From NCBI GenBank assembly GCA_963731265.1, contig CAVSUE010000001.1, positions 32,001 through 96,000 on the forward strand: a stretch of DNA of 64,000 nucleotides, in the 5' to 3' direction. Shown here piece after piece: positions 18,930-19,891 of the stretch. The DNA is from an uncultured Verrucomicrobiae bacterium. Lineage in GTDB: Bacteria > Chlamydiota > Chlamydiia > Chlamydiales > Rhabdochlamydiaceae. The number at the start of each line of letters is the position of its first letter. Position 1 is the stretch's first letter. A program made the translations under genes and the position numbers. The notes below the pieces were generated by a model, which did not search any database, was not told where the DNA came from, and worked only from the letters and a program-made list of their open reading frames with translations.

Positions 18930-18958
18930 TCCGCGTGCTCACCTCTCAAGCAGCTTAC

Positions 18959-19189
18959 ATACCGCGCGCAGGAAGGTTTTGTGAGTTTGGACTCTGCGAG
19001 GCAAAGCAAAATCGAAGCGATGCGGCCGAACGAGAAAGACAATTCCCGAATAGGGCTGCAACCATTAAAGGATGGTTGCAGGTCTCCTCGGAGTTCAAAC
19101 TCCGAAGAGACTGGAACGGCTGAAGAGGAGGATCGATTTTGCAAAGCGGCAGCCAGTCCAAATTCACAAAACCTGACGGAGCGCGGTAT
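18959..19189. mobile_element. 231-bp palindromic element inserted in the pyrH 5' end
   Basis: Terminal IRs ATACCGCGC/GCGCGGTAT, nested IRs AGGTTTTGTGAGTTTGGACT/AGTCCAAATTCACAAAACCT and GCAAAATCGA/TCGATTTTGC. Confidence 0.8.
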
Positions 19190-19891
19190 AAGAGAGTCCT
19201 TCTGAAACTTTCAGGAGAAGCGCTGATGGGCGAGCAGAAATTTGGCGTTGAGCACCCAGCTTGTCAGCAGATAGCTCAAGCGATCAAAGAGGTCCACTGT
19301 CTTGGCGTCCAAATGGGAATTGTGGTCGGGGGCGGAAATATTTTCCGCGGCAGCCAGGCGGCCAGCTTCGGTTTTGCCCGAACGCCCGCCGACCATATTG
19401 GCATGTTGGCGACGACCATCAACGGTCTCGTCCTTCAGCAAACTTTGGCTAGTCTTGGGATAGAAAGCCGGGTCATGAGCGCCTTAAATATAGATCAGAT
19501 CGTCGAGCCATTCCATTGGGGCCGCGCCCTGCATTCGCTGCAAAAGGGGATCCCCGTCATCTTCGTCGGAGGAACGGGCAATCCTTACTTTACGACCGAT
19601 TCCGCAGCAGCCCTTCGCGCCAGTGAAATTCAAGCTGAAATTCTACTCAAAGCGACAAAAGTTGACGGCATTTTCAGCGAAGACCCAAAAAAAAATCCTC
19701 AAGCGATCAAATTCGACCGCCTCACTTACTCAGAAGTTCTCGCAAAGCAATTGAATGTGATGGACGCCACCGCGATCGCTTTGTGCCGCGAGAGCCAAAT
19801 ACCCATTTGTGTCTTTAATTTATTTGAACAGGGAGCGATGCTCAAAGCTGTTTGCGGACAGCCAAAAGGCTCGCTTGTCATGGGAGGTTAA
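19139..19891 (+). CDS. pyrH: UMP kinase
   Basis: YKRVLLKLSGE, GGGNIFRG, GNPYFTTD, VMDATA; present TTG start lies inside the inserted element, ancestral start GTG 18935. Confidence 0.95.
   Translation: MQSGSQSKFTKPDGARYKRVLLKLSGEALMGEQKFGVEHPACQQIAQAIKEVHCLGVQMGIVVGGGNIFRGSQAASFGFARTPADHIGMLATTINGLVLQQTLASLGIESRVMSALNIDQIVEPFHWGRALHSLQKGIPVIFVGGTGNPYFTTDSAAALRASEIQAEILLKATKVDGIFSEDPKKNPQAIKFDRLTYSEVLAKQLNVMDATAIALCRESQIPICVFNLFEQGAMLKAVCGQPKGSLVMGG

Follow-up and report, generated by a model that had tools for sequence, protein, structure and literature searches.

The rpsB-tsf-pyrH-frr operon of a Rhabdochlamydiaceae-like environmental chlamydia (NCBI GenBank assembly GCA_963731265.1) harbours, within the 5′ end of pyrH, a palindromic repeat element of 231 bp that separates the native start codon of this UMP kinase gene from its kinase domain, and that carries a stop codon, a ribosome-binding site and a candidate replacement start codon of its own. 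Coordinates refer to the window, a stretch of 64,000 nucleotides corresponding to positions 32,001 to 96,000 of the forward strand of contig CAVSUE010000001.1, and the operon and element features described lie on that strand; the source genome (2.0 Mb plus 0.34 Mb in two contigs, C1 and C2; 46% G+C) is designated G000, the other G-numbers being genomes of the same genus. Upstream of the element, tsf (18078–18929), an open reading frame recognised as elongation factor Ts from its protein reading and its place between rpsB and pyrH, contains in its last codons the native pyrH Shine-Dalgarno (SD) sequence, GGAGG (18921–18925), in an arrangement with the tsf stop that is common to 13 congeners, and the native GTG start follows 9 nt on, at 18935. 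This GTG now opens a leader frame of 62 codons (18935–19123), eight of them native (MLTSQAAY) and 54 contributed by the element in its frame 1, which closes with a TGA at 19121–19123 and whose peptide has no NCBIfam match. The element itself (18959–19189; MITE-like, for miniature inverted-repeat transposable element) is an imperfect palindrome with a left arm (18959–19015) and a right arm (19133–19189) of 57 nt each, which are 75% complementary and separated by 117 nt; it also has two inner hairpins. Beyond the TGA come an element-borne GGAGG (19127–19131) and, after a 7-nt spacer and within the right arm, an in-frame TTG at 19139, from which pyrH is now readable (19139–19891) as a 250-residue protein comprising 17 element-derived codons and a complete UMP kinase. 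Scored against the UMP kinase profile TIGR02075, this frame reaches 308.6 bits (cut-off 243.9), with residues 17–247 aligned to profile positions 1–232 of 233; its product is 95% identical to PyrH of the nearest congener, G003, and the nearest named loci are those of a Candidatus Rhabdochlamydia metagenome-assembled genome (MAG; 73%) and a Simkania MAG (62%). The following gene, frr (19894–20448), starts with ATG, is named ribosome recycling factor from its protein reading, and has orthologues in all five congeners searched.

A palindromic mobile element has inserted into the 5′ end of pyrH, as the empty sites of congeners show. It is absent from all 13 loci of the genus that include a pyrH 5′ end, and its insertion point lies between codons 8 and 9, where it adds a net 231 bp, a multiple of three. 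A preliminary description of the locus, made from the letters of the DNA alone, had listed this in-frame insert, the TGA, the GGAGG, the TTG and the pairing of the arms, all of which hold, and had proposed that deleting 18959–19189 would restore a normal PyrH N-terminus. The empty site of G003 bears this out, being the window minus 18959–19189 plus one synonymous difference in the Tyr codon; it reads MPTSQAAY-KRVLLKLSGE from a GTG start 9 nt past the GGAGG at the end of tsf, so that relatives lacking the element do possess an MxTSQAAY-type start, the absence of which the preliminary description had named as a refutation. Ahead of the KR motif, the PyrH N-termini of congeners differ in sequence and span about 8–10 codons (read by eye), and hence this part of the protein appears tolerant of change. 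The right junction also exists in a second sample, since a 151-nt contig from the soil metatranscriptome library of a different study bridges 19134–19284 with four mismatches, 56 nt of it falling in the element and 95 nt in pyrH. The strain behind it is closer to G000 than G003 is and, among the differences listed, has the G000 state at 10 of the 11 sites within 19190–19401 at which G000 and G003 differ.

The element is one member of a dispersed repeat family. BLAST searches of its own genome return 31 matches, read as 17 loci, a count that drops two short matches (39 nt at C1:1739118 and 29 nt on C2). Copies range from 166 to 359 bp and share arms of about 60 nt, the part that is conserved in an alignment of eight of them, the left arm most of all, while whole inner hairpin modules differ from copy to copy; the pyrH copy is unique in sequence, its best sister being 95% identical over only 170 nt. 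At least 13 of the 17 copies are co-oriented with the gene that they occupy or precede, as judged by reading of flanks and open frames. Of 18 other genomes of the genus, 13 contain matches to the family, and 12 genomes drawn from other families of the order contain none, which suggests that, as far as searched, it is confined to this genus of environmental chlamydiae. Two congeners assembled as single contigs and devoid of pyrH, G001 and G005, have the most element matches (62 and 44, versus 31 in G000).

Frame 2 of the element, which is shifted one base to the right relative to the pyrH frame, is open over its whole length, and hence the family would normally survive inside genes by adding a peptide. 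Long open frames on the same strand enclose six of the 17 copies completely, all six in frame 2, and all four of these that were compared with G003 (the copies at C1:116199 and C1:846263 lie outside this comparison) are insertions within coding sequence, absent from the corresponding G003 site and with a net length that is a multiple of three. With gene names taken from NCBIfam, they are found after codon 10 of PriA (L003, C1:517189–517485, +294 nt), directly after the ATG of FolC (L002, C1:848226–848522), after codon 17 of RNase R (L007, C1:1235142–1235366, +225 nt) and near the C-terminus of LpxK (L008, C1:213893–214063, +171 nt). The 76-residue frame-2 peptide has no NCBIfam match, leaving the element without a transposase or other recognisable protein by this search, but it recurs in 27 database proteins (E ≤ 0.001, among 87 candidates in a search restricted to longer proteins) with query coverage of 91–100% and identity of 46–59%. 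These proteins carry many unrelated Pfam domains, and one of them is named as belonging to Rhabdochlamydiaceae; in the five inspected, the peptide is internal in a SNF2-type helicase and in MutS, and C-terminal in the other three.

By analogy of behaviour, the family is like the Rickettsia palindromic elements (RPEs), whose hallmark, in the passages of the literature that deal with them, is the in-frame presence of palindromic repeats in the genes of an intracellular bacterium (PMC10969869; PMC3184786; Ogata et al., 2000, cited there). In both cases, short palindromic repeats of an obligate intracellular bacterium contain an open frame and sit in-frame in unrelated housekeeping genes, to which they add a peptide, as seen here for PriA, FolC, RNase R, LpxK and the 27 database proteins. 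The differences are that the host phylum is Chlamydiota, so that the likeness is one of behaviour with no sequence relation claimed, and that the present elements are longer (171–357 bp versus about 105–150 bp) and modular, with swappable inner hairpins. The copy in pyrH, moreover, is not read through but sits in a frame with a stop, and hence the RPE-like character attributed to it in the preliminary description stands for the family, with its open frame, four in-frame genes and 27 proteins, but not for this particular copy, in frame 1 with its TGA.

With bacterial MITEs the family shares small size, the lack of a transposase, terminal inverted repeats, multiple dispersed copies and a strong RNA hairpin, but not target-site duplication: none that is clean or consistent is apparent at five pairs of filled and empty sites (pyrH, priA, folC, rnr and lpxK), whose junctions are irregular by 1–3 nt. 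Target-site models of TA, TAT and AT, compared by eye with these five junction pairs, each failed to fit all of them. Nor does any pair of arms in G000, the one genome searched in this way, enclose more than about 360 bp, so that no insert of transposase size, as expected of an autonomous partner, is present there. Correia elements of Neisseria are MITEs that lie at gene 5′ ends and alter the expression of neighbouring genes; like the present family, they are small and numerous, lack a transposase, have terminal inverted repeats and a strong RNA hairpin, often lie at the start of genes and influence how the neighbouring gene is expressed. The family differs from Correia-type MITEs in having no clean target-site duplication, no autonomous partner with the same ends seen in this genome and no promoter-like site, a sigma-70-type consensus scan of 18700–19400 for promoters and terminators having found none inside the element (the lone promoter-like site, 18804–18833, is within tsf). 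No MITE or palindromic family of this type described for Chlamydiae or Rhabdochlamydia came to light in a literature search that had subscription journals and supplements outside its reach; parts of a Rhabdochlamydiaceae genomics paper treat transposases and insertion sequence (IS) elements (PMC9723776).

What sets the pyrH copy apart is its frame. It is in frame 1, not frame 2, at both of its ends, and frame 1 holds a single stop, the TGA. The same bases, GCTGA, occupy the corresponding position in three others of the eight aligned copies (116k, 517k and 848k) and in a fourth, unaligned copy (C1:1469955; 1470k), and therefore the TGA belongs to the element and is not a slip of base calling or assembly, the error that the preliminary description had named as a possible refutation. 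Among the eight aligned copies, GGAGG together with TTG is present in the pyrH and 846k copies, and the LpxK copy has the weaker AAGGA with TTG; the GGAGG/GAAGG motif and the TTG are thus ordinary variants of the right arm of the family, and the signals for a restart therefore arrived ready-made with the element. By simple counting, about one in six insertions of this variant would have the orientation and phase that put SD and start in frame. The TTG at 19139 is the only in-frame ATG, GTG or TTG between the TGA and the KLSGE motif, which is important for the kinase; the next in-frame ATG, at 19226, already lies behind that motif. Since pyrH in congeners starts mostly with GTG and in one case apparently with TTG, and rpsB appears to start at a TTG behind GAGGG, non-ATG starts seem usual here.

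The predicted RNA structure places this start in a paired region. The segment 18920–19230 folds with −143.1 kcal/mol, compared with −94.45 ± 5.43 kcal/mol in 100 shuffled sequences (z = −8.96), none of which folds as stably. In the minimum-energy fold, 19133–19142, the TTG included, pairs with 19015–19006 inside the leader, the TTG and the three nucleotides before it being held within a 10-bp helix at the inner end of the 57-nt arm pairing, while the element SD falls in an internal loop with G19130 as its sole paired base. The predicted cost of opening 19124–19150 is 16.9 kcal/mol for the RNA left free, falling to 6.4 kcal/mol when 18935–19020 is held single-stranded, values that would fit the idea, put forward in the preliminary description, that translation of the leader melts the stem. 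Rfam has no family inside the element at E ≤ 1, its 14 matches in 18000–22000 being two tRNAs and weak matches elsewhere.

The insertion, the repeat family to which it belongs, the reading frames, the signals and the completeness of the domain are established; from them we infer with moderate confidence that PyrH restarts at the TTG, probably coupled to translation of the leader, which we consider the best reading of the locus. A non-autonomous palindromic element would have inserted between codons 8 and 9 of pyrH and landed in the TGA-bearing frame 1. The native GTG and its GGAGG would then drive the 62-codon leader to its end at 19121–19123, and PyrH would be made from the TTG, using the element GGAGG 7 nt upstream, its native eight-residue N-terminus giving way to 17 residues encoded by the element and its kinase domain being intact. 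Because the left arm is predicted to sequester the TTG by pairing, and no more than 15 nt separate the TTG from the leader stop before it, coupling is the favoured mode: ribosomes translating the leader would prevent the two arms from pairing and pass from leader to PyrH at TGA..TTG, a plausible course as far as the modelled fold goes. Translational coupling, or termination-reinitiation, is known in bacterial operons and phage RNAs, and a stop 15 nt before the next start is a classical geometry for it. The present locus shares with such systems both this spacing and a downstream start predicted to be paired with sequence of the upstream frame; it would differ from them in that the arrangement arose in a single step from a mobile element inside one gene. 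A further parallel is offered by REP2 of Neisseria and the IR of Borrelia, dispersed repeats described in part of PMC3184786 as bringing a ribosome-binding site and start codon to a downstream gene. The likeness, one of layout as read from the sequence, lies in the GGAGG and TTG that the element carries in frame with PyrH. According to the same passage, REP2 has no terminal inverted repeats, carries a promoter and is located upstream of genes (PMC3184786), whereas the element described here lies within a gene, whose native start it has cut off to serve a leader, and shows no promoter-like site in the sigma-70-type scan.

The insertion may instead have knocked pyrH out, leaving a young pseudogene on its way to a deletion of the kind seen in congeners, with the SD and TTG of the element chance features of its own consensus, an explanation that we regard as possible but doubtful. 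A number of observations weigh against a restart, several of them by favouring this alternative. The gene is missing from G001 (L151), G005 (L152) and G008 (L153), in each of which tsf and frr are adjacent on one contig, at a distance of about 76 nt, 26 nt and less than 20 nt, respectively, and G004 (L150) keeps a 258-nt pyrH remnant between tsf and frr, also on one contig. TIGR02075 is matched above its cut-off in 12 of 19 genomes of the genus, two more showing split matches in assemblies that are 64% and 56% complete. Five matches to the TLC/NTT nucleotide-transporter family are present in G000, and Ntt1/Ntt2 are listed, in part of the genomics paper, in the core genome of the family (PMC9723776). 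On this evidence, pyrH is plainly dispensable in the genus, UMP kinase having been lost repeatedly, and nothing forces a rescue, so that the earlier characterisation of pyrH as a normally essential gene does not carry over to these bacteria. Other copies, too, have an SD-like motif and TTG without using them as starts, and this TTG is a weak start codon paired in a long stem. The SD and TTG, being ordinary right-arm variants, were not acquired after the insertion and hence provide no evidence of adaptation, which makes the word domesticated, used in the preliminary description, too strong. Opening the native start is predicted to cost 16.1 kcal/mol, similar to the new start in the same fold; therefore, the energies alone decide nothing and the argument drawn from them is soft. 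The metatranscriptome contig may derive from DNA, and the TGA and SD fall outside its span. Lastly, a scan of metagenome contigs with a 17-mer across the junction gave no further checkable carriers; the ten loci it returned are chance matches, with no BLAST similarity to 18700–19500.

Against a knock-out stands the condition of the gene itself, whose 250-residue frame is intact and scores above the TIGR02075 cut-off over its full length. On the G000 branch since its separation from G003, with G002 as outgroup, non-synonymous and synonymous codon changes number 1 and 8 in pyrH, 2 and 12 in tsf, and 0 and 9 in frr (ambiguous codons, 11 in pyrH, 23 in tsf and 15 in frr, are omitted), a pattern in pyrH like that of the neighbouring essential genes. 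These counts and the intact frame reveal no sign of decay in pyrH, as far as the sequences tell; it weighs on the other side that the 1:8 count accumulated along the entire branch from G003 on, and that the insertion may date from much later. The diverged strain of the metatranscriptome contig shares the junction, and its listed differences in pyrH are three synonymous ones and one Ser-to-Asn change (codon effects determined by hand), which suggests purifying selection on pyrH after the insertion, the 3:1 count being too small for a test. Besides, by simple counting about one in six insertions of this variant would bring its strong SD and a start into the frame of the gene. Restart at the TTG continues to be the reading that we prefer to a loss of the gene.

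Two details of the genomes compared may be mentioned here. One of the five TLC/NTT matches in G000 (C1:1261831–1263237) has an internal TAG, and may be a pseudogene or end early. In G001 and G005, rpsB is broken into several frames, as is tsf in G001 (L151 1–1000; L152 1–500), through either indel errors of long-read assembly or real decay, which bears on how far these two genomes can be trusted at the level of single bases.

A sub-case of the restart at the TTG is ordinary independent initiation on the element SD, with no part played by the leader. The location of that SD in an internal loop, G19130 alone being paired, and the strength of GGAGG with a 7-nt spacer as a signal speak for it. We nevertheless hold it to be unlikely, given that the TTG and the 3 nt preceding it are within the 10-bp helix of the arm pairing, and that the leader retains the native SD and start and ends at the short distance from the TTG that is typical of coupling. 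Far less probable still is that the TGA is no real stop, by assembly error or read-through, and that PyrH is made from the native GTG with an insertion of 77 residues, as a genuine RPE would give. In its favour, the net length is divisible by three, the other in-gene copies tested are read through, and no read contig covers the TGA: public reads were compared as contigs for four of the 16 runs listed, and no contig from these four covers 19024–19104 or bridges the TGA. Four other copies, however, conserve the bases of which the TGA consists; the pyrH copy is in frame 1 at both ends as against frame 2 in the read-through copies, a difference that one base error cannot convert; and recoding of TGA is without support, the neighbouring genes ending normally under translation table 11. 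In the same runs, X1 yielded one identical 311-nt contig from 19186, possibly from the source sample and hence not counted as independent, and in X6 and X4 the pieces that match the arms carry other flanks, belonging to other copies of the element or to other organisms. Placement of the element in pyrH by repeat misassembly is scarcely credible: repeats do break and mis-join assemblies, and in the best DNA run the short-read contigs break off at the edge of the element, 19186, but what flanks it on either side is a single gene, cut in two and still in phase, the contig of an independent study bridges the right junction, and the pyrH copy has no sister elsewhere that matches it throughout.

Several copies have features at their right end that recall the arrangement in pyrH. 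The element end also has a GGAG, 6–8 nt from its last base; at the folC copy (junction at C1:848522), the last element bases and the flank together make a new ATG behind GGAG, and behind the copies whose right ends are at C1:349892 and C1:1557161, an ATG that begins a long frame follows after 0 and 3 nt. We put forward, tentatively, that the family may be built to be harmless at gene starts, through its open frame, its internal GGAGG-TTG and its terminal GGAG, such that insertions at or just after a start codon would extend the protein or re-create a start, as at pyrH and with the junction ATG of folC, the pyrH locus becoming a leader-coupled gene in one step. The copies that end 0–3 nt before an ATG likewise suggest this possibility.

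The element is not the only repeat in its surroundings. At 20841–21231 of the window, directly after tRNA-Glu (20674–20749) and tRNA-Lys (20770–20842), are three tandem units of 131 nt (identities 100%, 100% and 82%), each with a long palindrome and A/T runs, which constitute a repeat different from that in pyrH. Just upstream of the RNase R gene on C1 (L007:1177–1340) lies a second, unrelated insertion of 164 nt, absent from the G003 site; copies of it, 82–87% identical, occur elsewhere in G003 and G002, and therefore it represents another repeat family.

If PyrH is really made from the TTG of the element, a mobile palindrome would have replaced a translation start in a single event and created a leader with coupled re-initiation, a simple natural route to new 5′ regulatory architecture. 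Irrespective of the restart, an RPE-like system is present in a second, unrelated lineage of obligate intracellular bacteria, which bears on why coding-compatible repeats arise in intracellular genomes and on the extent to which they remodel proteins (PriA, FolC, RNase R, LpxK, MutS and an SNF2-type helicase). In practical terms, automated annotation of chlamydial MAGs will place starts wrongly at such loci, or report pseudogenes there. The family can hence be viewed as RPE-like MITEs in a new phylum, one copy of which may illustrate the replacement of a start codon together with the birth of a coupled leader.

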